Source: a virus
Taxonomy: Duplodnaviria; Heunggongvirae; Uroviricota; Caudoviricetes
Direction: 5' to 3' (one strand)
IMG/VR virus record: IMGVR_UViG_2609459860_000011
DNA length: 9,746 bases
The position numbers and the translations under genes were made by a program. Shown one piece after another: positions 1 through 9,746 of this stretch. Position 1 is the stretch's first letter. Each line of letters opens with the position of its first letter. The notes below the pieces were generated by a model that was not told the DNA's origin, searched no databases, and saw only the letters and a program-made list of their open reading frames with translations.

Positions 1-411
1 TCTGCAGATTTTAACTCATGGGAATATGTGCCAGACCATCGCGGTGAAATCATCTATAGCACCGAAACAGGAGAATCGAAAGAAATCACAGCTCCGGGTG
101 ATTATCCTGAAAATACAACCACTATCGCCCCGTTAACGCCATACGATAAATGGGATGGTGAGAAATGGGTGACCGATACTGAGGCACAGCATAGCGCCGC
201 AGTAGGCGCGGCAGAAGCACAGCGTCAGTCACTGATTGATACTGCAATGGCTTCCATTAGTCTGATTCAACTGAAATTGCAGGCCGGGCGGAAGCTGATG
301 CAGACAGAAAACACCCGACTTAACGCTGTGCTGGATTATATTGACGCGGTGACGGCAACAGATACCAGCACAGCGCCGGACGTCATCTGGCCTGAACTGC
401 CGGAGGCGTAG
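1..411 (+). CDS. Tail fibre assembly protein (Tfa, P2 gpG-like), 5'-truncated by the window edge; copy in the currently expressed orientation
   Basis: Frame 1 is open from base 1 (no stop) to TAA at 409-411; the ORF track's GTG at 28 is internal. The C-terminus ...NAVLDYIDAVTATDTSTAPDVIWPELPEA carries the Tfa-family motif (LDYxDAx...APD-x-W-P-x-x-P) and is paralogous to the C-terminus of the minus-strand ORF 383..826. The two genes overlap convergently at their 3' ends (383-411), as in Mu G, P1 C and e14 P segments. Confidence 0.75.
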   Translation, partial: SADFNSWEYVPDHRGEIIYSTETGESKEITAPGDYPENTTTIAPLTPYDKWDGEKWVTDTEAQHSAAVGAAEAQRQSLIDTAMASISLIQLKLQAGRKLMQTENTRLNAVLDYIDAVTATDTSTAPDVIWPELPEA

Positions 412-826
412 GCCATTCAATATCTGGAGCGCTGGAGATATCAACCAGTTCCAGTGCGTCCAGATAATCCAGCCATAAATTATATTGTTCCAGCTCGTCA
501 CCTTTCAGACGACCAATAGCAGCTTTGCCAGGCCACTGATGGGTATTGATGTAGGTATTGACTTCTGAAACCAAAGATATTTTTTTCATTTCAGCCGCCA
601 GCACCTCATCCTCTTTTGAAGGCGGTGGGGAATTAATCCATACTGGTCGTCCTGAACTGTCAGCGCCAATTTCTTTCCCTTCTGGATGCAGCCCAAGAAA
701 TTGCTCATATGTTTCTCTGGTAATTTCAATAACATCATCAGGAAGCGTTCCCGCATCCTCATATTCTGGAAACAATTCTTGCAGATAAAAACTTTTACTT
801 CCGGGTGAAAAGAATACTGAGTTCAT
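383..826 (-). CDS. Tail fibre assembly protein, alternate copy (Tfa') in the currently silent orientation
   Basis: 147-aa ORF, ATG at 826-824 (minus). C-terminus ...NLWLDYLDALELVDISSAPDIEWPTPPAVQAR is the same motif as the plus-strand tfa. It starts 2 nt after the stop (831-829) of the upstream minus-strand fibre cassette, i.e. a fibre-Cterm/tfa pair. Confidence 0.75.
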   Translation of the reverse strand: MNSVFFSPGSKSFYLQELFPEYEDAGTLPDDVIEITRETYEQFLGLHPEGKEIGADSSGRPVWINSPPPSKEDEVLAAEMKKISLVSEVNTYINTHQWPGKAAIGRLKGDELEQYNLWLDYLDALELVDISSAPDIEWPTPPAVQAR

Positions 827-828
827 TC

Positions 829-1323
829 TTACCGTCCAATGATTAACGCTGAGACGCTGGTATCTGAAGGAAAGGCTGCATTCAGTGGTTTGTCGACTTT
901 GAACACAATCGTATTATTCCCCCTGACAGCGGCAAAAGAACAAACCGCCGTCGCGTATGAACCTGTAATATTACTGGATACACCACCATAAGCTGTTGTT
1001 GATACCAGAGGGATAACGCCCAGCACCTTATTAGGAAATACAAAGGGCAATGTGGCTGTGGCAATATAAGACTTATTAGAACCTGTAATGGCATAAGCAT
1101 TATCAGTCATTCCATTCATCGCCACTGGACCGCTTATACTTACAGTAACCATCTGAATGATTAGCCCGTCAGGTTGACGAATCACAAAATTTCCATTGCC
1201 ACCAGTAACCGTCCAGAAAGACATATCAGGGATTTGGTTTTCCCCGTTGCCCACATTTCGTTTTGCCGCTTCTCCCAAACCAACGTTTATGAAAATGCAG
1301 AGATAACGGCTAACTGGCATCAT
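829..1323 (-). CDS. Alternate tail-fibre C-terminal (receptor-binding) cassette; probably promoterless and expressed only as a fusion to the constant fibre N-terminus after inversion
   Basis: Minus-strand ORF whose 5' end contains the crossover site (1270-1295, encoding ...IFINVGLGEA...). Gly/Ser/Thr/Val/Asn-rich composition typical of fibre tips. Directly followed by tfa'. The ATG at 1323 may be fortuitous. Confidence 0.6.
   Translation of the reverse strand: MMPVSRYLCIFINVGLGEAAKRNVGNGENQIPDMSFWTVTGGNGNFVIRQPDGLIIQMVTVSISGPVAMNGMTDNAYAITGSNKSYIATATLPFVFPNKVLGVIPLVSTTAYGGVSSNITGSYATAVCSFAAVRGNNTIVFKVDKPLNAAFPSDTSVSALIIGR
1270..1295. other. hix/gix/pix-type crossover site for the serine invertase (right boundary of the invertible segment)
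   Basis: TTCTCCCAAACC-AA-CGTTTATGAAAA: two imperfect 12-bp inverted half-sites around a central AA, matching the remembered hixL TTCTTGAAAACC-AA-GGTTTTTGATAA at most positions. It lies 55 bp upstream of the invertase start and inside the 5' end of the silent fibre cassette. Confidence 0.6.
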
Positions 1324-1350
1324 CTCCGGTTTTTATTCAGGGGATCCATC

Positions 1351-1944
1351 ATGCTTATTGGCTATGTCCGCGTATCAACAAATGACCAGAACACGGAATT
1401 GCAGCGTAACGCGCTGGAATGCGCGGGATGTGAGCGGATTTTTGAGGACAAAATCAGCGGCACGAAGTCCGACAGGCCGGGACTGAAAAAACTGCTCAGG
1501 ACATTATCGGATGGGGATACACTGGTAGTCTGGAAGCTGGACCGGCTGGGGCGTAGTATGCGGCATCTGGTCATTCTAGTTGAGGAACTGCGCGAACGTG
1601 GCATTAATTTTCGCAGCCTGACGGATGCTATTGATACCAGCACGCCGATGGGGCGTTTTTTCTTTCATGTGATGGGTGCCCTGGCTGAAATGGAGCGAGA
1701 ACTCATTGTCGAGCGGACACGCGCCGGACTGGAAGCGGCCAGAGCCAAAGGTCGTATTGGTGGCAGACGTCCGAAACTCACCGCGAGTGAGTGGGAGCAG
1801 GTCGGACGGTTGCTGGCTGCGGGGGAATCTCGTCAACGCGTGGCGCTGATTTTTGATATTGGCCTGTCCACGCTCTATAAAAAATTCCCCTCATCAGCGA
1901 CAAAGAATAAATTGTGTCATCCCTTAGCCAACCGGGACAAATAG
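1351..1944 (+). CDS. Serine DNA invertase, Gin/Pin/Hin/Cin family
   Basis: Starts MLIGYVRVSTNDQNTELQRNAL... (catalytic Ser in RVSTNDQ); conserved ...DTLVVWKLDRLGRSM...GRFFFHVMGALAEMERELIVERT... and C-terminal HTH ...ALIFDIGLSTLYKKF. Close to my memory of Mu Gin and e14 Pin. RBS AGGGGA at 1339-1344. The ORF-track start at 1174 is an upstream in-frame extension running antisense through the fibre cassette; the real start is the ATG at 1351. Confidence 0.9.
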   Translation: MLIGYVRVSTNDQNTELQRNALECAGCERIFEDKISGTKSDRPGLKKLLRTLSDGDTLVVWKLDRLGRSMRHLVILVEELRERGINFRSLTDAIDTSTPMGRFFFHVMGALAEMERELIVERTRAGLEAARAKGRIGGRRPKLTASEWEQVGRLLAAGESRQRVALIFDIGLSTLYKKFPSSATKNKLCHPLANRDK

Positions 1945-2003
1945 CCTGACATCTCCGGCACAACTGAAAATACCACTCACCCATTAACCACGGAGTTAAA
2001 CGG
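1900..2003 (+). promoter_or_regulatory. Probable Ogr-dependent late promoter region (PF-like) for the FI-FII-E-T-U-D operon, overlapping the invertase 3' end
   Basis: Only 59 bp separate the invertase stop (1942-1944) from the FI ATG (2004), so the late promoter and activator site (expected near -55 in P2 late promoters) must overlap the invertase 3' coding end. A partial dyad TGTGTCA...GGGACA is present at 1913-1939, but I could not find an exact TGT-N12-ACA element. Confidence 0.3.
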
Positions 2004-3194
2004 ATGAGTGACTATCATCACGGCGTGCAGGTGCTGGAGATTAACGACGGCACCCGCGTCATTTCCACCGTATCCACGGCCATTGTCGGCATGGTCTGCA
2101 CGGCCAGCGATGCGGATGCGGAAACCTTCCCCCTCAATAAACCGGTGCTGATTACCAATGTGCAGAGCGCAATTGCAAAGGCCGGTAAAAAAGGCACGCT
2201 GGCGGCGTCGTTACAGGCCATCGCTGACCAGTCAAAACCGGTCACCGTTGTTGTGCGCGTGGAAGACGGCACCGGCGACGACGAGGAAACGAAACTTGCG
2301 CAGACCGTTTCCAATATCATCGGCACCACCGACGAAAACGGTCAGTACACCGGACTGAAAGCCCTGCTGGCGGCGGAGTCGGTAACCGGTGTTAAACCGC
2401 GCATTCTCGGTGTGCCGGGACTGGACACCAAAGAGGTGGCTGTTGCACTGGCATCAGTCTGTCAGAAGCTGCGCGCTTTCGGGTATATCAGCGCATGGGG
2501 CTGTAAGACCATTTCCGAGGTGAAAGCCTACCGCCAGAATTTCAGCCAGCGTGAACTGATGGTTATCTGGCCGGATTTCCTCGCATGGGATACGGTCACC
2601 AGTACCACCGCCACCGCGTATGCCACCGCCCGTGCGCTGGGTCTGCGCGCTAAAATCGACCAGGAGCAGGGCTGGCATAAAACGCTGTCCAACGTCGGGG
2701 TAAACGGTGTTACCGGCATCAGCGCGTCCGTATTCTGGGATTTGCAGGAGTCCGGCACCGATGCTGACCTGCTTAACGAGTCTGGCGTCACTACGCTGAT
2801 TCGCCGCGACGGTTTCCGCTTCTGGGGTAACCGTACCTGCTCTGATGACCCGCTGTTCCTCTTTGAAAACTACACCCGCACCGCGCAGGTGCTGGCCGAC
2901 ACGATGGCTGAGGCGCACATGTGGGCGGTGGACAAGCCCATCACCGCAACGCTGATTCGCGACATCATTGACGGCATCAATGCCAAATTCCGTGAGCTGA
3001 AAACAAACGGCTATATCGTGGATGGCTCATGCTGGTTCAGCGAAGAATCCAACGATGCGGAAACCCTCAAGGCCGGAAAACTGTATATTGACTACGACTA
3101 TACCCCGGTGCCTCCTCTTGAAAACCTGACCCTGCGCCAGCGTATTACCGATAAATACCTGGCAAATCTGGTCACCTCGGTTAACAGCAATTAA
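2004..3194 (+). CDS. FI: Contractile tail sheath protein (P2 gpFI)
   Basis: 396 aa, the same length as P2 FI; sequence MSDYHHGVQVLEINDGTRVI... recognised as P2-type sheath. RBS GGAG 8 nt upstream. Confidence 0.9.
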   Translation: MSDYHHGVQVLEINDGTRVISTVSTAIVGMVCTASDADAETFPLNKPVLITNVQSAIAKAGKKGTLAASLQAIADQSKPVTVVVRVEDGTGDDEETKLAQTVSNIIGTTDENGQYTGLKALLAAESVTGVKPRILGVPGLDTKEVAVALASVCQKLRAFGYISAWGCKTISEVKAYRQNFSQRELMVIWPDFLAWDTVTSTTATAYATARALGLRAKIDQEQGWHKTLSNVGVNGVTGISASVFWDLQESGTDADLLNESGVTTLIRRDGFRFWGNRTCSDDPLFLFENYTRTAQVLADTMAEAHMWAVDKPITATLIRDIIDGINAKFRELKTNGYIVDGSCWFSEESNDAETLKAGKLYIDYDYTPVPPLENLTLRQRITDKYLANLVTSVNSN

Positions 3195-3206
3195 GGAGCC
3201 TGACCG

Positions 3207-3725
3207 ATGGCAATGCCGCGCAAACTCAAGTTAATGAACGTCTTTCTGAACGGCTACAGCTATCAGGGCGTCGCGAAGTCCGTCACGCTGCCAAAACTGA
3301 CCCGTAAGCTCGAAAACTATCGCGGTGCGGGAATGAACGGCAGCGCACCGGTAGACCTCGGCCTTGATGACGATGCGCTGTCAATGGAGTGGTCGCTCGG
3401 GGGCTTCCCGGATTCGGTTATCTGGGAGCTTTACGCCGCAACCAGTGTGGATGCTGTGCCGATTCGTTTTGCAGGCTCTTACCAGCGCGACGATACCGGC
3501 GAAACGGTGGCCGTCGAGGTGGTCATGCGTGGACGTCAGAAAGAAATCGACACCGGCGAGGGCAAACAGGGAGAAGACACCGAGTCGAAAATCTCCGTGG
3601 TCTGCACCTATTTCCGGCTGACGATGGACGGTAAGGAGCTGGTCGAAATCGACACCATCAACATGATTGAGAAGGTGAACGGCGTCGACCGGCTGGAGCA
3701 ACACCGCCGCAATATCGGCCTGTGA
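3207..3725 (+). CDS. FII: Tail tube protein (P2 gpFII)
   Basis: 172 aa, MAMPRKLKLMNVFLNGYSYQGVAKSVTLPKL...; RBS AAGGAG at 3193-3198; position immediately after the sheath gene as in P2. Confidence 0.9.
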   Translation: MAMPRKLKLMNVFLNGYSYQGVAKSVTLPKLTRKLENYRGAGMNGSAPVDLGLDDDALSMEWSLGGFPDSVIWELYAATSVDAVPIRFAGSYQRDDTGETVAVEVVMRGRQKEIDTGEGKQGEDTESKISVVCTYFRLTMDGKELVEIDTINMIEKVNGVDRLEQHRRNIGL

Positions 3726-3733
3726 TTTTCATC

Positions 3734-3754
3734 CGGTCAGCCTGGCTGACCGGT
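3734..3754 (+). other. Perfect 9-bp stem / 3-nt loop hairpin in the FII-E intergenic region (possible attenuator or mRNA processing/stability element)
   Basis: CCGGTCAGC-CTG-GCTGACCGG, 9 nt after the FII stop; no following T-run, so not a classical intrinsic terminator. Confidence 0.35.
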
Positions 3755-3781
3755 TAACCCCGATTCAGAAGTGAGAAAACC

Positions 3782-4057
3782 ATGAACAAAGAAAATGTGA
3801 TTACCCTGGACAATCCGGTCAAGCGTGGTGAGCAGGTTATCGAACAGGTCACGCTGATGAAACCCAATGCCGGGACGCTGCGCGGTGTCAGTCTGGCTGC
3901 GGTCGCGAACTCTGAAGTCGATGCACTGATTAAGGTGCTGCCGCGCATGACGGCACCGATGCTGACCGAGCAGGAAGTCGCCGCGCTGGAACTGCCTGAC
4001 CTTGTGGCGCTGGCCGGTAAGGTGGTCGGTTTTTTGTCGCCGAACTCGGTGCAGTGA
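3782..4057 (+). CDS. E: Tail assembly chaperone gpE (zero-frame product)
   Basis: 91 aa, MNKENVITLDNPVKRGEQVIEQVTLMKPNAG..., ending ...KVVGFLSPNSVQ. Confidence 0.85.
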   Translation: MNKENVITLDNPVKRGEQVIEQVTLMKPNAGTLRGVSLAAVANSEVDALIKVLPRMTAPMLTEQEVAALELPDLVALAGKVVGFLSPNSVQ

Positions 4058-4209
4058 CGTTTCCGAAAAATCTCTCGGTCGATGACCTGATGGCAGATGT
4101 GGCAGTGATATTTCACTGGCCGCCATCAGAACTGTATCCCATGAGCCTGACCGAACTCATCACATGGCGCGAAAAGGCGCTCCGGCGAAGCGGAAACACG
4201 AATGAGTAA
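3782..4209 (+). CDS. E+E': gpE+E' extended chaperone made by programmed -1 ribosomal frameshift (analogue of lambda G/GT)
   Basis: Slippery heptamer T-TTT-TTG at 4030-4036 in the E frame (GGT TTT TTG). The -1 frame is open from 4036 to TAA at 4207-4209 and encodes ...VAELGAVTFPKNLSVDDLMADVAVIFHWPPSELYPMSLTELITWREKALRRSGNTNE. The stop overlaps the T start codon (ATG 4202-4204). Total about 142 aa, as for P2 E+E'. Confidence 0.7.
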
Positions 4210-6649
4210 CAATGTAAAATTACAGGTATTGCTCAGGGCTGTTGACCAGGCATCCCGCCCGTTTAAATCCATCCGTACAGCGAGCAAGTCGCTGTCGGGG
4301 GATATCCGGGAAACACAAAAATCACTGCGCGAGCTGAACGGTCAGGCGTCCCGTATTGAGGGATTTCGCAAGACCAGTGCGCAGCTCGCCGTGACTGGTC
4401 ATGCACTTGAAAAGGCTCGGCAGGAAGCCGAAGCCCTTGCCACACAGTTTAAAAACACCGAACGTCCGACCCGTGCTCAGGCGAAAGTGCTGGAATCCGC
4501 AAAGCGTGCGGCGGAGGACTTACAGGCGAAATATAACCGCCTGACGGATTCCGTTAAACGCCAGCAGCGGGAACTGGCCGCTGTGGGAATTAATACCCGC
4601 AATCTTGCACATGATGAGCAGGGGCTGAAAAACCGTATCAGTGAAACCACCGCACAGCTTAACCGTCAGCGCGACGCACTGGCGCGTGTCAGTGCACAAC
4701 AGGCAAAACTTAACGCAGTCAAACAGCATTATCAGGCCGGAAAGGAACTGGCAGGAAATATGGCCTCAGTGGGCGCTGCCGGTGTGGGGATTGCTGCTGC
4801 GGGAACGATGGCCGGTGTTAAGCTGCTGATGCCCGGTTATGAGTTTGCGCAGAAAAACTCAGAATTGCAGGCTGTGCTCGGTGTGGCAAAAGACTCCGCC
4901 GAAATGGCCGCATTACGCAAACAGGCGCGCCAGCTCGGCGACAATACCGCCGCCTCGGCGGATGATGCGGCCGGTGCACAGATAATCATCGCGAAAGCGG
5001 GTGGGGATGTTGATGCCATTCAGGCGGCAACGCCGGTCACGCTGAATATGGCGCTGGCGAACCGCCGCACGATGGAAGAAAACGCCGCCCTGCTGATGGG
5101 GATGAAATCCGCCTTTCAGCTTTCAAACGATAAGGTCGCTCATATCGGGGATGTTCTCTCCATGACGATGAACAAAACCGCCGCCGATTTTGACGGCATG
5201 AGCGATGCGCTGACCTATGCCGCACCTGTGGCAAAAAATGCCGGTGTCAGCATTGAAGAAACCGCCGCAATGGTCGGGGCGCTGCATGATGCAAAAATTA
5301 CAGGCTCAATGGCGGGGACGGGAAGCCGTGCCGTGTTAAGTCGCCTGCAGGCACCAACGGGAAAAGCATGGGATGCACTCAAAGAGCTTGGCGTGAAAAC
5401 CTCAGACAGCAAGGGAAACACCCGGCCAATATTTACCATTCTGAAAGAAATGCAGGCCAGTTTTGAGAAAAACCGGCTCGGTACTGCCCAGCAGGCTGAA
5501 TACATGAAAACTATTTTCGGGGAGGAGGCCAGCTCAGCCGCCGCCGTGCTGATGACTGCCGCCTCAACCGGAAAGCTGGACAAACTGACCGCTGCGTTTA
5601 AAGCCTCAGACGGGAAGACTGCCGAGCTGGTAAATATCATGCAGGACAACCTCGGCGGTGACTTTAAGGAGTTTCAGTCCGCTTATGAGGCGGTGGGGAC
5701 TGACCTGTTTGACCAGCAGGAAGGCGCACTGCGTAAGCTCACGCAGACGGCCACAAAGTATGTGTTAAAACTCGACGGCTGGATACAGAAAAACAAATCA
5801 CTGGCGTCAACCATTGGTCTCATTGCCGGTGGCGCACTGGCGCTTACTGGCATCATCGGTGCCATTGGCCTCGTAGCCTGGCCGGTTATCACCGGCATCA
5901 ATGCCATCATCGCGGCAGCAGGCGCAATGGGGGCAATCTTCACGACGGTTGGCAGTGCCGTTATGACGGCCATCGGGGCGATTAGCTGGCCGGTTGTGGC
6001 CGTGGTGGCCGCCATTGTCGCCGGGGCGTTGCTTATCCGTAAATACTGGGAGCCTGTCAGCGCATTCTTTGGCGGTGTGGTGGAAGGGCTGAAAGCGGCA
6101 TTTGCGCCGGTGGGGGAACTGTTCACGCCACTTAAGCCGGTGTTTGACTGGCTGGGTGAAAAGTTACAGGCCGTGTGGCAGTGGTTTAAAAACCTGATTG
6201 CCCCGGTCAAAGCCACACAGGACACCCTGAACCGTTGCCGTGACACGGGCGTCATGTTCGGGCAGGCACTGGCTGACGCGTTAATGCTGCCGCTTAATGC
6301 GTTCAACAAACTGCGCAGCGGTATTGACTGGGTACTGGAAAAACTCGGTGTTATCAACAAAGAGTCAGACACACTTGACCAGACCGCCGCAAGGACTAAT
6401 GCCGTCACGTATGGCACCGGTGGTTATATTCCGGCGACCAGCTCTTATGCAGGCTATCAGGCTTATCAGCCGGTCACGGCACCGGCTGGTCGCTCTTATG
6501 TGGACCAGAGTAAAAACGAATATCACATCAGCCTGACGGGCGGTACTGCGCCAGGGACACAGCTCGACCGCCAGTTACAGGATGCACTCGAAAAATACGA
6601 GCGGGATAAACGTGCGCGCGCCCGTGCCAGCATGATGCATGACGGTTAA
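4202..6649 (+). CDS. T: Tail tape measure protein (P2 gpT)
   Basis: 815 aa, the same length as P2 T. N-terminal coiled-coil-like Gln/Ala/Arg/Leu-rich region and a central Gly/Ala/Ile-rich hydrophobic stretch typical of tape measure proteins. Start is translationally coupled to the E' end. Confidence 0.9.
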   Translation: MSNNVKLQVLLRAVDQASRPFKSIRTASKSLSGDIRETQKSLRELNGQASRIEGFRKTSAQLAVTGHALEKARQEAEALATQFKNTERPTRAQAKVLESAKRAAEDLQAKYNRLTDSVKRQQRELAAVGINTRNLAHDEQGLKNRISETTAQLNRQRDALARVSAQQAKLNAVKQHYQAGKELAGNMASVGAAGVGIAAAGTMAGVKLLMPGYEFAQKNSELQAVLGVAKDSAEMAALRKQARQLGDNTAASADDAAGAQIIIAKAGGDVDAIQAATPVTLNMALANRRTMEENAALLMGMKSAFQLSNDKVAHIGDVLSMTMNKTAADFDGMSDALTYAAPVAKNAGVSIEETAAMVGALHDAKITGSMAGTGSRAVLSRLQAPTGKAWDALKELGVKTSDSKGNTRPIFTILKEMQASFEKNRLGTAQQAEYMKTIFGEEASSAAAVLMTAASTGKLDKLTAAFKASDGKTAELVNIMQDNLGGDFKEFQSAYEAVGTDLFDQQEGALRKLTQTATKYVLKLDGWIQKNKSLASTIGLIAGGALALTGIIGAIGLVAWPVITGINAIIAAAGAMGAIFTTVGSAVMTAIGAISWPVVAVVAAIVAGALLIRKYWEPVSAFFGGVVEGLKAAFAPVGELFTPLKPVFDWLGEKLQAVWQWFKNLIAPVKATQDTLNRCRDTGVMFGQALADALMLPLNAFNKLRSGIDWVLEKLGVINKESDTLDQTAARTNAVTYGTGGYIPATSSYAGYQAYQPVTAPAGRSYVDQSKNEYHISLTGGTAPGTQLDRQLQDALEKYERDKRARARASMMHDG

Positions 6650-6663
6650 GGAGGTGACGAAAA

Positions 6664-7143
6664 ATGATGCTCGCGTTAGGTATGTTTGTTTTTATGCGCC
6701 AGACGCTGCCACACCAGACCATGCAGCGTGAATCAGATTATCGCTGGCCGTCAAATTCCCGTATCGGTAAACGGGATGCCTACCAGTTTCTCGGTGTGGG
6801 TGAGGAAAACATTACGCTTGCAGGCGTGCTTTATCCCGAACTGACCGGCGGGAAGCTGACGATGACCACGCTCAGGCTGATGGCAGAGGAAGGCCGGGCG
6901 TGGCCGTTGCTGGATGGCACCGGCATGATTTACGGCATGTATGTCATCAGCAGGGTGAGTGAAACAGGGAGTATTTTCTTTGCAGACGGCACACCCCGGA
7001 AAATTGATTTTACGCTGTCACTCACCCGCGTTGATGAATCACTGGCCGCGCTTTATGGCGATATCGGTAAACAGGCGGAATCGCTCATCGGTAAGGCTGG
7101 CAGTATGGCGACTAAATTCACGGGTATGACGGGGGCGGGATAA
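6664..7143 (+). CDS. U: Tail protein gpU
   Basis: 159 aa, MMLALGMFVFMRQTLPHQTMQRESDYRWPS...; RBS AGGAGG at 6648-6653; stop TAA 7141-7143 overlaps the D start by 1 nt (TAATG). Confidence 0.85.
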   Translation: MMLALGMFVFMRQTLPHQTMQRESDYRWPSNSRIGKRDAYQFLGVGEENITLAGVLYPELTGGKLTMTTLRLMAEEGRAWPLLDGTGMIYGMYVISRVSETGSIFFADGTPRKIDFTLSLTRVDESLAALYGDIGKQAESLIGKAGSMATKFTGMTGAG

Positions 7144-8306
7144 TGCTGGATGCGCTGACATTTGATGCAGGCAGTACGCTGACGCCGGATTACATGCTGA
7201 TGCTCGACAGCAGGGATATTACCGGCAATATCAGCGACCGTCTGATGAGCATGACCCTGACGGATAACCGGGGCTTTGAGGCTGATCAGCTTGATATTGA
7301 ACTGAACGATGCCGACGGGCAGGTCGAACTGCCGGTTCGTGGCGCTGTTCTGACGGTGTATATCGGCTGGAAAGGTTTTGCCCTGGTATGCAAAGGGAAA
7401 TTCACCGTTGATGAGGTAGAACACCGGGGCACGCCGGATGTGGTCGCCATCCGGGCCCGGAGTGCAGATTTTCGTGGCACGCTCAATTCCCGCCGTGAAG
7501 GCTCCTGGCATGACACCACGCTCGGTGCGATTGTTGAGGCGATAGCCTCCCGTAACAGGCTGGAAGCCAGTGTCGCTCCGTCACTGGCCGGAATTAAAAT
7601 CCCGCACATCGACCAGTCGCAGGAGTCTGATGCAAAATTCCTGACCCGCCTTGCTGAACGCAACGGCGGTGAGGTGTCGGTAAAAATGGGAAAACTGTTG
7701 TTTCTCAAAGCGGGGCAGGGGGGGACGGCCAGCGGTAAAAAAATCCCGCAGATTACCATCACCCGCAGCGACGGCGACCGTCATCATTTTGCGATTGCTG
7801 ACCGTGGAGCCTACACCGGCGTAACGGCAAAGTGGTTACACACCAAAGACCCGAAGCCGCAAAAGCAGAAGGTAAAACTGAAACGCAAAAAGAAAGAGAA
7901 ACACCTGCGCGCACTGGAGCACCCGAAAGCGAAACCGGTCACGCAGAAGAAAGCGCCAAAAGTACCGGAAGCGCGCGAAGGTGAATACATGGCCGGTGAG
8001 GCTGACAATGTTTTTGCCCTGACCACGGTATATGCCACGAAAGCGCAGGCCATGCGCGCCGCTCAGGCGAAGTGGGATAAACTGCAACGGGGCGTTGCGG
8101 AGTTCTCCATCAGCCTGGCTACCGGTCGGGCTGATATTTACACGGAAACACCGGTTAAAGTGTCAGGCTTTAAGCGCGTCATAGACGAGCAGGACTGGAC
8201 AATCACTAAGGTGACACATTTTCTGAATAATAGCGGCTTCACGACGTCCTTAGAGCTTGAGGTCAGGCTTTCTGATGTGGAGTACGAAACAGAAGATGAA
8301 GAATGA
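7143..8306 (+). CDS. D: Tail protein gpD (P2 late gene D)
   Basis: 387 aa, the same length as P2 D; MLDALTFDAGSTLTPDYMLMLDSRDITGNISDRLMSMTLTDNRGFEADQLDIELNDADGQ...; last gene of the FI-D tail operon. Confidence 0.85.
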   Translation: MLDALTFDAGSTLTPDYMLMLDSRDITGNISDRLMSMTLTDNRGFEADQLDIELNDADGQVELPVRGAVLTVYIGWKGFALVCKGKFTVDEVEHRGTPDVVAIRARSADFRGTLNSRREGSWHDTTLGAIVEAIASRNRLEASVAPSLAGIKIPHIDQSQESDAKFLTRLAERNGGEVSVKMGKLLFLKAGQGGTASGKKIPQITITRSDGDRHHFAIADRGAYTGVTAKWLHTKDPKPQKQKVKLKRKKKEKHLRALEHPKAKPVTQKKAPKVPEAREGEYMAGEADNVFALTTVYATKAQAMRAAQAKWDKLQRGVAEFSISLATGRADIYTETPVKVSGFKRVIDEQDWTITKVTHFLNNSGFTTSLELEVRLSDVEYETEDEE

Positions 8307-8324
8307 TGTGTTTTATTTATCTGT

Positions 8325-8353
8325 TTGTTTTGTAAGGATAAATTAACTAAAAT
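8325..8353 (+). promoter_or_regulatory. Candidate sigma70 promoter for ogr
   Basis: -35 TTGTTT (8325-8330), 17-bp spacer, -10 TAAAAT (8348-8353); would give a 5' UTR of about 28 nt before the ogr ATG. ogr is known to have its own promoter in P2. Confidence 0.35.
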
Positions 8354-8387
8354 GGCACCATCAACAAAACCGGAAGAGGTGCTCGCG

Positions 8388-8606
8388 ATGTTTCATTGTC
8401 CTTTATGCCAGCATGCCGCACATGCGCGTACAAGTCGCTATATCACTGACACGACAAAAGAGCGTTATCACCAGTGTCAGAACGTGAATTGCAGCGCCAC
8501 GTTCATCACTTATGAGTCGGTACAGCGATACATCGTGAAGCCGGGAGAAGTCCACGCAGTAAGGCCGCACCCGTTGCCGTCAGGGCAGCAAATTATGTGG
8601 ATGTGA
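8388..8606 (+). CDS. ogr: Ogr zinc-finger late-gene transcriptional activator (Ogr/Delta family)
   Basis: 72 aa, MFHCPLCQHAAHARTSRYITDTTKERYHQCQNVNCSATFITYESVQRYIVKPGEVHAVRPHPLPSGQQIMWM; Cys4 motif CPLC...CQNVNC. RBS GGAAGAGG at 8372-8379. The ORF-track start at 8325 is an in-frame upstream extension with no RBS. Confidence 0.85.
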   Translation: MFHCPLCQHAAHARTSRYITDTTKERYHQCQNVNCSATFITYESVQRYIVKPGEVHAVRPHPLPSGQQIMWM

Positions 8607-8617
8607 TCACAAAAATA

Positions 8618-8645
8618 GCCCCTCAGTTGAGGGGCTTTATTTATG
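8618..8645 (+). terminator. Rho-independent terminator after ogr
   Basis: AGCCCCTC-AGTT-GAGGGGCT (8-bp GC-rich stem, 4-nt loop) followed by TTATTTAT. Confidence 0.6.
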
Positions 8646-8650
8646 GTCGA

Positions 8651-8669
8651 TGTGGACGCTATGTGGACA
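8651..8669 (+). other. Direct repeats ATGTGGAC x2 (a third, ATGTGGAT, at 8595-8602): candidate integrase arm-type binding sites of the prophage att arm
   Basis: gATGTGGACgctATGTGGACAg between the ogr terminator and the host-side terminator. I recall, without certainty, that P2 Int arm sites resemble TGTGGACA. An IHF-like site TATCATCAGGTTA (8693-8705) lies just downstream. Confidence 0.3.
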
Positions 8670-8734
8670 GTGGTTTATATAAATCCATTTATATCATCAG
8701 GTTAGGTGATTTTTTGTGACACCATCCCTGTCTT

Positions 8735-8762
8735 CCCCCACATGATGTGGGGGTTTTTTTTT
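8735..8762 (+). terminator. Strong rho-independent terminator; possibly the duplicated 3' end/terminator of the upstream host locus (cpxP/CpxQ) forming the att core
   Basis: CCCCCAC-ATGAT-GTGGGGG followed by a run of 9 T (8754-8762). It sits 81 bp upstream of fieF. Confidence 0.65.
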
Positions 8763-8843
8763 ATCCTCAATTTGCCTGCTGCTTAATGCATTGCAGATGA
8801 TTTGCTTCCGTTATACTAGCGTCAGTTGATAGCGGGAGTATTT

Positions 8844-9746
8844 ATGAATCAATCTTATGGACGGCTGGTCAGTCGGGCGGCGATTGCTGCGACGGCGATG
8901 GCTTCGTTGCTATTGCTGATTAAAATTTTTGCATGGTGGTATACCGGGTCGGTGAGTATTCTCGCCGCGCTGGTGGATTCGCTGGTGGATATCGGCGCGT
9001 CGTTGACGAATTTACTGGTGGTGCGATATTCCCTGCAACCTGCCGACGATAATCACTCGTTTGGTCACGGTAAAGCAGAGTCCCTCGCGGCGCTGGCGCA
9101 AAGTATGTTTATCTCCGGTTCGGCACTATTCCTGTTTTTGACGGGTATTCAACATCTGATATCTCCAACACCGATGACAGATCCAGGCGTCGGGGTTATC
9201 GTGACAATTGTGGCGCTAATTTGTACGATTATCCTTGTCTCGTTTCAGCGTTGGGTGGTGCGGCGGACGCAAAGCCAGGCGGTGCGGGCTGATATGCTAC
9301 ATTACCAGTCTGATGTTATGATGAACGGCGCAATTCTGCTGGCGCTGGGGTTGTCCTGGTACGGCTGGCATCGCGCCGATGCTCTGTTTGCATTGGGAAT
9401 CGGCATCTATATTTTATATAGCGCGTTACGCATGGGATATGAGGCGGTACAGTCATTACTGGATCGCGCATTGCCTGATGAGGAACGGCAAGAAATTATT
9501 GATATCGTGACTTCCTGGCCGGGTGTTAGCGGCGCTCACGATCTTCGCACGCGGCAGTCAGGGCCGACCCGCTTTATTCAGATTCATTTGGAAATGGAAG
9601 ACTCTCTGCCTTTGGTTCAGGCACATATGGTGGCGGATCAGGTAGAGCAGGCTATTTTACGGCGTTTTCCGGGATCGGATGTAATTATCCATCAGGACCC
9701 CTGTTCCGTCGTACCCAGGGAGGGTAAACGGTCTATGCTTTCATAA
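8844..9746 (+). CDS. fieF: Cation-diffusion-facilitator family Fe(II)/Zn(II) efflux transporter FieF (YiiP)
   Basis: 300 aa, [51 protein letters not shown]..., recognised as E. coli FieF; RBS GGGAG at 8833-8837; TAA at 9744-9746. The ORF-track start at 8826 is an upstream extension. Candidate -10 TATACT at 8812-8817. Confidence 0.9.

Follow-up and report, generated by a model that had tools for sequence, protein, structure and literature searches.

The right-hand part of a very probable Pin/Gin-type tail-fibre inversion switch in a P2-like prophage of Escherichia coli

Results

Genes and features of the locus

The window (the whole stretch of 9,746 nucleotides that was analysed) belongs to a prophage whose host is E. 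coli. An earlier note on this DNA had placed five features within positions 1-1944, namely two tail-fibre assembly (tfa) genes, a silent fibre cassette, a crossover site and an invertase gene, and all five were located at those positions (Table 1).

Table 1 Features of the fibre-switch region and its right-hand flank
Feature	Position	Strand	Basis and remarks
tfaE-like tail-fibre assembly chaperone, 3' part, 136 of ~200 codons	1..411	+	Caudo_TAP, PHROG 105; inside invertible segment
tfa', complete 147-aa chaperone for alternative fibre tip	383..826	-	Caudo_TAP, PHROG 188; inside invertible segment
Hv', silent alternative C-terminal cassette of fibre gene H	829..1283	-	Gp53-like_C, phrog_12714; stop codon 829-831
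Right-hand 26-bp crossover site, TTCTCCCAAACC-AA-CGTTTATGAAAA	1270..1295		12-2-12 hix/pix layout; strand exchange at core AA (1282-1283)
Pin/Gin-family DNA invertase, 197 aa, intact	1351..1944	+	Resolvase and HTH_7; outside segment
Putative Fis-dependent recombinational enhancer, 5' end of invertase gene	1372..1435	+	G-N13-C 15-mers at 1372-1386 and 1421-1435
Right boundary of module; homology to P2 pF late-promoter region resumes	1912..2003	+	Alignment to P2 17,500-17,660
FI tail sheath gene, first P2 backbone gene right of module	2004..3194	+	ORF list; annotation of relatives and P2

The products of both tfa genes matched assembly-chaperone families, the rightward one at 2e-31 (Pfam Caudo_TAP) and 8e-64 (PHROG 105), and that of tfa' at 8e-28 (Caudo_TAP) and 7e-55 (PHROG 188). 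The rightward gene, which serves the fibre tip currently fused to H, shows 90.7% nucleotide identity to e14 tfaE. It has 200 codons when complete, as in relatives (8809-9411 in the related sequence L001), and the window copy is cut by the start of the window and of the contig. The two genes converge with a 29-nt overlap of their 3' ends, and the C-termini of the chaperones are paralogous (33% identity over 80 aligned residues, E = 6e-10), as the earlier note had proposed.

The leftward ORF at 829-1323 encodes a product that matches fibre C-terminal families (phrog_12714, 7e-48; Gp53-like_C, 5e-5, just under the Pfam cut-off). The earlier note had read all of it as a silent fibre cassette. The fibre assignment stands but the extent does not: only 832-1283 belongs to the segment and codes for fibre, and the 14 codons with which the ORF begins (1284-1323) fall beyond the segment and are fortuitous. 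Within the segment the cassette, Hv', lacks its own start codon; once inverted, it is read as an in-frame continuation of the constant part of H. Fusing the constant part of H to Hv' in silico gave an uninterrupted H of 426 aa, and this fusion is annotated 'phage tail protein' in four flipped genomes (L002, L003, L009 and L013). The locus thus has alternative fibre C-termini, each with its own chaperone, that continue the reading frame of a constant N-terminal part encoded outside the segment.

Just outside the segment lies the serine invertase that the earlier note had recognized, an intact ORF with strong profile matches (Resolvase, 2e-52; HTH_7, 5e-13; PHROG 125 'DNA invertase', 7e-101). 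Residues 1-182 of the protein align to the Mu Gin structures 3UJ3 and 4M6F (E = 3e-94). It has the catalytic domain and C-terminal HTH of a small serine recombinase, with R7, S9, D64, R65 and R68 readable in its sequence, and is 86% identical to e14 PinE and ~75-80% to Mu Gin. A search of four proteins against NCBIfam returned no specific model, and the invertase had only sub-threshold matches, to large serine recombinases. The distance from the centre of the crossover site to the ATG is 68 bp, compared with 67 in Mu and EPEC.

A putative enhancer lies within the 5' end of the invertase gene, a location that we infer from what is known of gin and hin. Mu gin and e14 pinE carry GTATCAACAAATGAC unchanged at the corresponding codons, and the G...C frame of the second 15-mer is kept in all four genes compared; this conservation is partly forced by the conserved protein sequence. 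An M114V change renders Gin independent of Fis, and the wild-type Met114 of the window's invertase suggests Fis dependence. In a scan of 1-2100, promoter-like sites were no commoner than in shuffled sequences. A terminator scan of the same region gave 6 matches against 1.9 expected, all in coding sequence or unhelpful places, and nothing was drawn from them.

To the right of the module the prophage is P2-like. Window 1924-8696 has 96.6% nucleotide identity to P2 17,572-24,342 (blastn), and the late genes follow in the P2 order FI-FII-E/E'-T-U-D-ogr with all ORFs open, up to the prophage end and the host gene fieF. The resumed pF region includes the activator site, the transcription start and the FI leader, and the invertase ORF has its final codons and its stop there. 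The module sits immediately before FI, at the place that the P2 annotation assigns to fun(Z). These results bear out the earlier placement of the module at the Z/fun locus.

Crossover sites

When up to three mismatches to the hix-type consensus were allowed, positions 1270-1295 were the sole match in the window, and none of 200 shuffled sequences contained any match. A half-site scan of the 9.7 kb, which recovered gixL and gixR of Mu and also the e14 sites as positive controls, likewise found this site alone (score 18/20). In the e14 P segment, the right-hand site is the same at 26 of 26 positions. These results confirm the hix/gix-like site named in the earlier note. The breakpoint predicted there, at about 1282-1283, coincides with the core dinucleotide and is the exact counterpart of the experimentally mapped boundaries at the EPEC locus. 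Furthermore, the breakpoints in flipped relatives fall within 1269-1286.

The source contig, JNPN01000049.1 (GCA_000703625.1), begins within tfa, one base to the left of window position 1. The partner site is out of view because it lies upstream of position 1, where this contig has no sequence; comparison with relatives predicts it ~0.66-0.70 kb upstream of that position. A partner was present in every relative examined (at 8325 in L001, 4388 in L002, 3936 in L013 and 4080 in L010), with core TT against AA in each. In these relatives it is inverted and lies inside gene H in frame, with GLGE on both sides and identical inner half-sites, and the frame ...AY(L/V)GLGE... is kept. The earlier expectation of an inverted partner in the fibre gene was thus borne out in the relatives. 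A shufflon-like layout is found in the other EPEC P2 prophage; scoring for a third crossover site at 14/20 or above found none in the window and L001.

Both orientations occur in near-identical prophages

The junction predicted for the flipped state was contiguous in at least 11 E. coli genomes, in one of them at 100% identity. In L013 and L014 the invertase protein is the same as the window's and the segment is flipped relative to the window. L013 carries window 1-1286 on its minus strand with 1 mismatch, and window 1269-2050 on its plus strand at 100%. This difference of 1 nt in 1286 between the window and a flipped prophage indicates a very recent inversion in the lineage.

Two pairs of genomes, each from one study, allowed the same comparison. 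For 23CRST027 and 23CRST031, an in-silico flip at the cores yielded 4411 nt with 0 mismatches and 1 gap, and a SNP in the inner half-site travels with the cassette. For MEI1A-0323 and MEI2O1-23, the stretch between the cores (1938 nt) is inverted, with flanks that match at 100%. In each pair the inversion is essentially the sole difference over the region compared. Together with L013 and L014, and with the experimentally studied EPEC homologue, these pairs support the earlier claim that two orientations exist. Among assemblies, the window state predominates ~9:1 (163 versus 18 genomes), a bias which suggests that switching may be biased or slow.

In the MEI pair the invertase gene carries a 32-nt frameshifting repeat expansion, yet the segment is flipped. 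We considered the underlying 8-bp repeat as a general hypermutable on/off tract and rejected this idea, as five copies occur only in those 2 of 5426 genomes; a search of IMG/VR found no match with two or more copies of the repeat.

Proposed mechanism

Collectively, these data indicate that window 1-1944 is very probably the right-hand part of a Pin/Gin-type inversion switch in the interval between the fibre genes and FI of a P2-like (Peduovirus) prophage. Of the whole switch, the right-hand two thirds fall within the window. The reading of the locus as a Gin/Pin-type fibre switch, put forward in the earlier note, is supported, and every testable part of it holds; the nuance concerns the label, since e14 Pin, and not Mu Gin, is the nearest counterpart of both the recombinase and the site.

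We propose that the invertible segment is ~1.95-1.98 kb long and bounded by one 26-bp site at each end, the left one probably inside H, ~0.66-0.70 kb before window position 1, and the right one at 1270-1295. It would contain two opposed cassettes, each consisting of a fibre C-terminus and its own assembly chaperone. By analogy with the family, dimers of the invertase would bind both sites, and host Fis would most likely be required, bound to the enhancer in the first 90 nt of the invertase gene. The enzyme would then cut the 2-bp cores, and rotation and religation of the DNA would follow. In this way the constant N-terminal 275 codons of H would be joined either to a 'collar'-type tip or to the gp53-like tip (829-1283). 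In the window state the gp53-like tip and tfa' are expected to be silent. The cassettes being convergent, the late promoter would express only the one that is read through from H. A lysogen population, possibly including that of the source strain itself, may therefore be mixed and release virions with two receptor specificities, with a probable effect on host range.

Discussion

Alternative explanations

The switch might mainly serve the host or other elements, either with its invertase acting in trans on further invertible segments (e14 P or those of other prophages), or with the flipped fibre protein being made by the lysogen and blocking the adsorption of other phages. The identity of the right site with that of e14 fits such a role, and the flip in the MEI pair beside a frameshifted invertase points to action in trans by another invertase. 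H, however, lies in the P2 late operon. That operon requires Ogr or phage activation, so expression of H in a quiet lysogen is unexpected. Moreover, a role of this kind would add to a host-range switch and not replace it, and we consider it an unlikely account of the locus. Such an effect has been reported for PinQ and StfE2: the e14 P segment is inverted by PinQ, which is encoded in the Qin prophage, and T2 adsorption is blocked (PMC12529663). It is also doubtful that the Pin-family invertases form a trans-acting network that spans different prophages. In such a network this switch could be flipped by other elements with the GGTTTGGGAGAA half-site (e14, Mu-like and other P2-like prophages), its enzyme could flip theirs, and the lysogen might exploit the flipped fibre genes, for instance against the adsorption of other phages as with PinQ/StfE2. 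The sole hint of a network in our data is the MEI flip beside a dead invertase.

Another explanation is that this genome carries a frozen relic, truncated on the left or deprived of its partner site, with a fossil cassette and an orphan invertase. The contig does start inside tfa, the EPEC homologue sits in a remnant truncated within H, and in some relatives the invertase is a pseudogene. Against this, the invertase, tfa' and Hv' of the window are all intact full-length ORFs, the remaining late region has kept its identity to P2 and its open reading frames, a prophage with the single mismatch noted above is flipped, and the truncated EPEC remnant still flips. A relic is therefore very unlikely.

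It is extremely improbable that the orientation differences arose by homologous recombination, horizontal cassette replacement or assembly error and not by site-specific inversion by this enzyme: fibre cassette swaps are known among P2-like phages and several draft contigs break near the locus, but the shared inverted repeat is only ~15-18 bp, three independent comparisons place the breakpoints at the 2-bp core, the half-site SNP behaves as expected of a crossover at the core, flipped and unflipped copies are otherwise identical over >4 kb, and the EPEC inversion was confirmed by PCR and WGS.

Significance

The inversion switch at this locus is real, functional-looking and already known, and its importance beyond annotation is small. 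Public labels name its parts as a 'recombinase family protein', a 'hypothetical protein' and two 'tail fiber assembly proteins'. Reading the parts as one switch gives the correct gene model of H, with a constant part and two alternative ends, and accounts for the breaks and discrepancies at this locus among assemblies of related strains. It also follows that host-range prediction from a single assembly sees one of the two receptor-binding tips.

Comparison with known systems

The earlier note had set the module against classical P2, which has no invertase. In one respect it was an over-estimate, as the arrangement has already been published for P2-like prophages. Switches of this kind were already familiar from Mu G, P1 C and e14 P, and one was demonstrated experimentally in the EPEC P2-like prophage. 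Fels-2 fin is published as well, and so is the presence of invertases in the Z/fun hotspot of P2, where they are frequent and adjacent genes are inverted (bioRxiv 10.1101/2024.10.15.618418).

The P segment of e14 with PinE shares the gene order of the window's switch (stf constant part, tip and tfa, tfa' and tip', pin), and its inner half-site, GGTTTGGGAGAA, is identical to the window's. However, e14 is a defective lambdoid element, whereas the window's module is set between G and FI in a late region of P2 type. K-12 e14 lacks the silent gp53-like tip, and the C-terminus of the window's invertase is 13 residues longer than that of PinE and reads into the P2 pF region.

The P2-like remnant of EPEC E2348/69 shares both the place (before FI) and the order of tip, tfa, tfa', gp53-like tip' and recombinase. 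This locus (NC_011601.1, 2977580-2979467) was found to be phase-variable by WGS and PCR (Goldberg et al. 2014, PMC4272514), and in our comparison the mapped ends, 2977580 and 2979467, are the exact core dinucleotides of its two sites. Its favoured orientation (93%) is that of the window, and its right site differs from the window's by 1 nt. The invertase, in contrast, is only 80% identical to the window's, the module has ~75% nucleotide identity right of the site, and the EPEC prophage is the truncated one.

Mu G/Gin, like P1 C/Cin and Salmonella H/Hin, shares the 26-bp 12-2-12 sites with the window. In Mu, too, the invertase gene is found directly beyond the right site, at the same distance (67-68 bp), and alternative S/U and S'/U' cassettes are placed on a constant N-terminus as in the window. 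The phage backbone is another one, the cores are TC/GA and not AA/TT, and the segment is 3 kb compared with ~2 kb. Hin, unlike the window's switch, controls a promoter and not a fibre.

Fels-2 of Salmonella is, by its published description, also a P2-like prophage with a pin homologue adjoining an invertible fibre segment. There, LT2 and LT7 differ by an inversion at fin (STM2702; PMC7953296), in a different host genus and with cassettes different from those of the window.

Gene layout and invertase

The gene layout of the window was derived from a six-frame ORF list and family searches. Together with site searches, these confirmed the features named in an earlier note, namely convergent tail-fibre assembly (tfa) genes, a fibre cassette, a crossover site and a serine invertase. 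The C-terminal 80 residues of the two assembly proteins are paralogous (33% identity, E = 6e-10). Among the downstream genes, the P2 E/E' −1 programmed-frameshift site, GGTTTTTTG, is kept at 4028-4036, where E spans 3782-4057 and the E' extension spans 4054-4209.

Genes of the window
Feature	Position	Strand
Tail-fibre assembly gene, 3' 136 codons	1-411	+
Second tail-fibre assembly gene, complete, convergent with the first	383-826	-
ORF with fibre C-terminal domain	829-1323	-
Resolvase + HTH_7 protein, 197 aa (invertase)	1351-1944	+
FI, sheath	2004-3194	+
FII, tube	3207-3725	+
E/E'	3782-4209	+
T	4202-6649	+
U	6664-7143	+
D	7143-8306	+
ogr	8388-8606	+
Host gene fieF	8844 onward	+

We found that the invertase aligns end to end with crystallised Mu Gin (3UJ3, 4M6F; E = 3e-94) and is 86% identical to e14 PinE, 80% to the invertase of an EPEC P2 remnant and 75% to Gin. 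Read directly, its sequence has Ser9 and the Arg/Asp equivalents of R8, D67, R68 and R71 of gamma-delta resolvase. At residue 114 it has the wild-type Met and not the Val of the crystallised Gin constructs. Because M114V is a Fis-independent allele of Gin, the window's enzyme is probably dependent on Fis and an enhancer. The gene gin carries its Fis enhancer within its first 90 nt. The same holds for hin (PMC3798978). The codons that hold G-N13-C 15-mers in gin and pinE hold them in the window's gene as well, at 1372-1386 and 1421-1435, within its first 90 nt. These fit a putative Fis enhancer, but their conservation is no proof of one, since the encoded protein is also conserved in this part.

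Crossover sites and reading frame

Window 1270-1295 reads TTCTCCCAAACC-AA-CGTTTATGAAAA, a hix-type 12-2-12 layout. No other stretch of the window matches the consensus with three or fewer mismatches, and matches arose in 0 of 200 shuffles. A half-site scan, which recovered gixL and gixR of Mu and both e14 sites, picked out a single site in the window, whereas in a 20-kb relative it picked out exactly two. All 26 bases of the window site agree with the right-hand site of the e14 P segment, and 68 bp separate its centre from the invertase ATG, compared with 67 bp in Mu and EPEC.

The window is positions 2-9747 of source contig JNPN01000049.1 (GCA_000703625.1), which starts one base earlier, so the partner site cannot be on this contig. 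The inverted partner that the earlier note expected inside the upstream fibre gene is, however, present in relatives. In L001, the closest complete-genome relative (97% identity), it lies inside the fibre gene H as TTCTCGCATACC-TT-GGTTTGGGAGAA, inverted; 1917 nt separate the repeat arms, the core TT complements AA and the inner half-site is identical. The cores are 1984 nt apart in L013, a relative nearly identical to the window, a spacing that puts the partner about 0.70 kb upstream of the window's first base (about 0.66 kb from the L001 spacing). The exchange, marked here by a slash, keeps the frame in both H (...LLAYLGLGE/GSALP...) and the silent cassette (...NVGLGE/AAKRN...), and joining the constant N-terminal part of H (Hc) to the window cassette in silico gave an open 426-aa protein.

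The end of the source contig, one base outside the window, falls within tfa. Contigs of three sister drafts break 73 nt inside the segment, counted from the right site; past the break, L015 runs into the window cassette, and L016 and L017 run into non-matching sequence, presumably the alternative cassette. Such breaks would be consistent with cultures that, when sequenced, contained both orientations or repeated fibre genes.

Both orientations among relatives

A query that fused Hc of L001 to the reverse-complemented window cassette showed the predicted flipped junction as contiguous sequence in 11 or more complete E. coli genomes, with 100% identity in one of them. The invertase of two relatives, L013 and L014, is exactly that of the window, but their segment is inverted. 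In L013, the minus strand matches window 1-1286 with one mismatch and the plus strand matches 1269-2050 at 100%, an overlap that places the exchange within 1269-1286.

Two isolates of one study, 23CRST027 and 23CRST031, aligned over 4411 nt with no mismatches and one 1-nt gap once one was flipped in silico between the core dinucleotides. An inner half-site SNP (GGGGGAA vs GGGAGAA) travels with the cassette, as core crossover predicts. The chaperone gene tfa' is frameshifted in both loci (L003/L004), and a frameshifted invertase is annotated only in 23CRST027 (L004 5352-5944); this is the 1-nt gap, and either an error in sequencing or a very recent loss of function may account for it.

The chromosomes of MEI1A-0323 (4,849,041 bp) and MEI2O1-23 (4,849,042 bp) have 100% identical flanks around 1938 nt inverted between the cores. 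Their invertase genes (L008 4938-5563, L009 6989-7614) carry five tandem copies of TGGTAGTC, a 32-nt insertion causing a frameshift and stops; the single-copy equivalent is at window 1523-1530, and the expansion is private to this pair among 5426 genomes.

We counted orientations with 500-nt junction probes (window 1033-1532 versus the flipped junction). The gp53-like cassette lay next to the invertase, silent as in the window, in 163 genomes and was fused to H in 18, rough numbers because each probe also needs its flank conserved. This bias is close to the 93% forward in EPEC cultures at the homologous locus, which suggests that the switch is intrinsically biased.

Position in the P2 backbone

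Phage P2 is 96.6% identical to window 1924-8696. The P2 genome has fun(Z) directly to the left of the pF activator site and FI, and P2 homology restarts at window ~1912 by eye (1924 by blastn), inside the pF activator/promoter region. The module therefore fills the Z/fun slot, as the earlier note had proposed. The final codons and stop of the invertase ORF fall in the resumed homology: at 1912-1944 the ORF runs into the pF region, and its last ~11 codons and stop are P2 backbone sequence. For this reason the C-terminal tail, longer than that of PinE or Gin, seems to be a chance product of the insertion junction.

At the right end of the prophage (8606-8844), ogr is followed by a GC-rich hairpin terminator, ~200 nt, a second hairpin with a T-run and fieF, so the prophage sits just upstream of fieF. 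L001 adjoins yegQ rather than fieF, indicating that near-identical P2-like phages use different attachment sites.

A probable inversion switch of fibre tips

Taken together, frame, the partner site in relatives and both orientations support the reading as a fibre-switch inversion module. We consider it very probable that this is a live Pin-type switch, by which one constant fibre shaft would bear either of two receptor-binding tips, each served by a chaperone of its own; the window would be the state with the gp53-like tip silent. Switching would be expected to alter host range, and the source strain would probably be a mixed population.

Because the MEI genomes differ by inversion though the adjacent invertase is frameshifted, their segment is implied to be inverted in trans by another Pin-family enzyme. 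A further host-serving or trans-acting role of the window's module is unlikely, and would add to the switch rather than replace it. It is less likely still that the switch is a frozen relic in the window's genome: the inactivated invertase that the earlier note allowed for was not borne out, the gene being intact, with no frameshift or premature stop. A recombination or assembly artefact is hardly credible; near-identical prophages appear, by genome comparison, in both orientations with breakpoints at the cores, and the homologous EPEC locus flips experimentally.

Comparison with known systems

Using whole-genome sequencing, Goldberg et al. (2014; PMC4272514) described three phase-variable prophage loci in EPEC E2348/69, one Mu and two P2-like, and confirmed coexisting variants by PCR for e14 in MGY and for a four-variant P2 locus. 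Their Table S1 lists an inversion at NC_011601.1 2977580-2979467 with 93 ± 4% in the reference orientation. In the fetched sequence of this locus, the two site cores lie exactly at 2977580-81 and 2979466-67, the right site differs from the window site by one base, and the gene order is that of the window (tip, tfa, tfa', gp53-like tip', recombinase, FI). The window has the reference and majority orientation. For the P2-like prophage Fels-2, Zaworski et al. (2021; PMC7953296) described a like inversion beside fin, a homologue of pin, and a 2024 preprint reported that the P2 Z/fun hotspot often encodes a DNA invertase, with adjacent genes inverted (10.1101/2024.10.15.618418). Furthermore, the invertase is present and annotated in GenBank in the isolated P2-like phages KC618326, pro483, 500465-1, Klebsiella KP12 and Salmonella MET_P1_103_31. 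That P2-like prophages can carry a Pin-type switch at Z/fun is thus already known; such switches are common in E. coli and experimentally documented.
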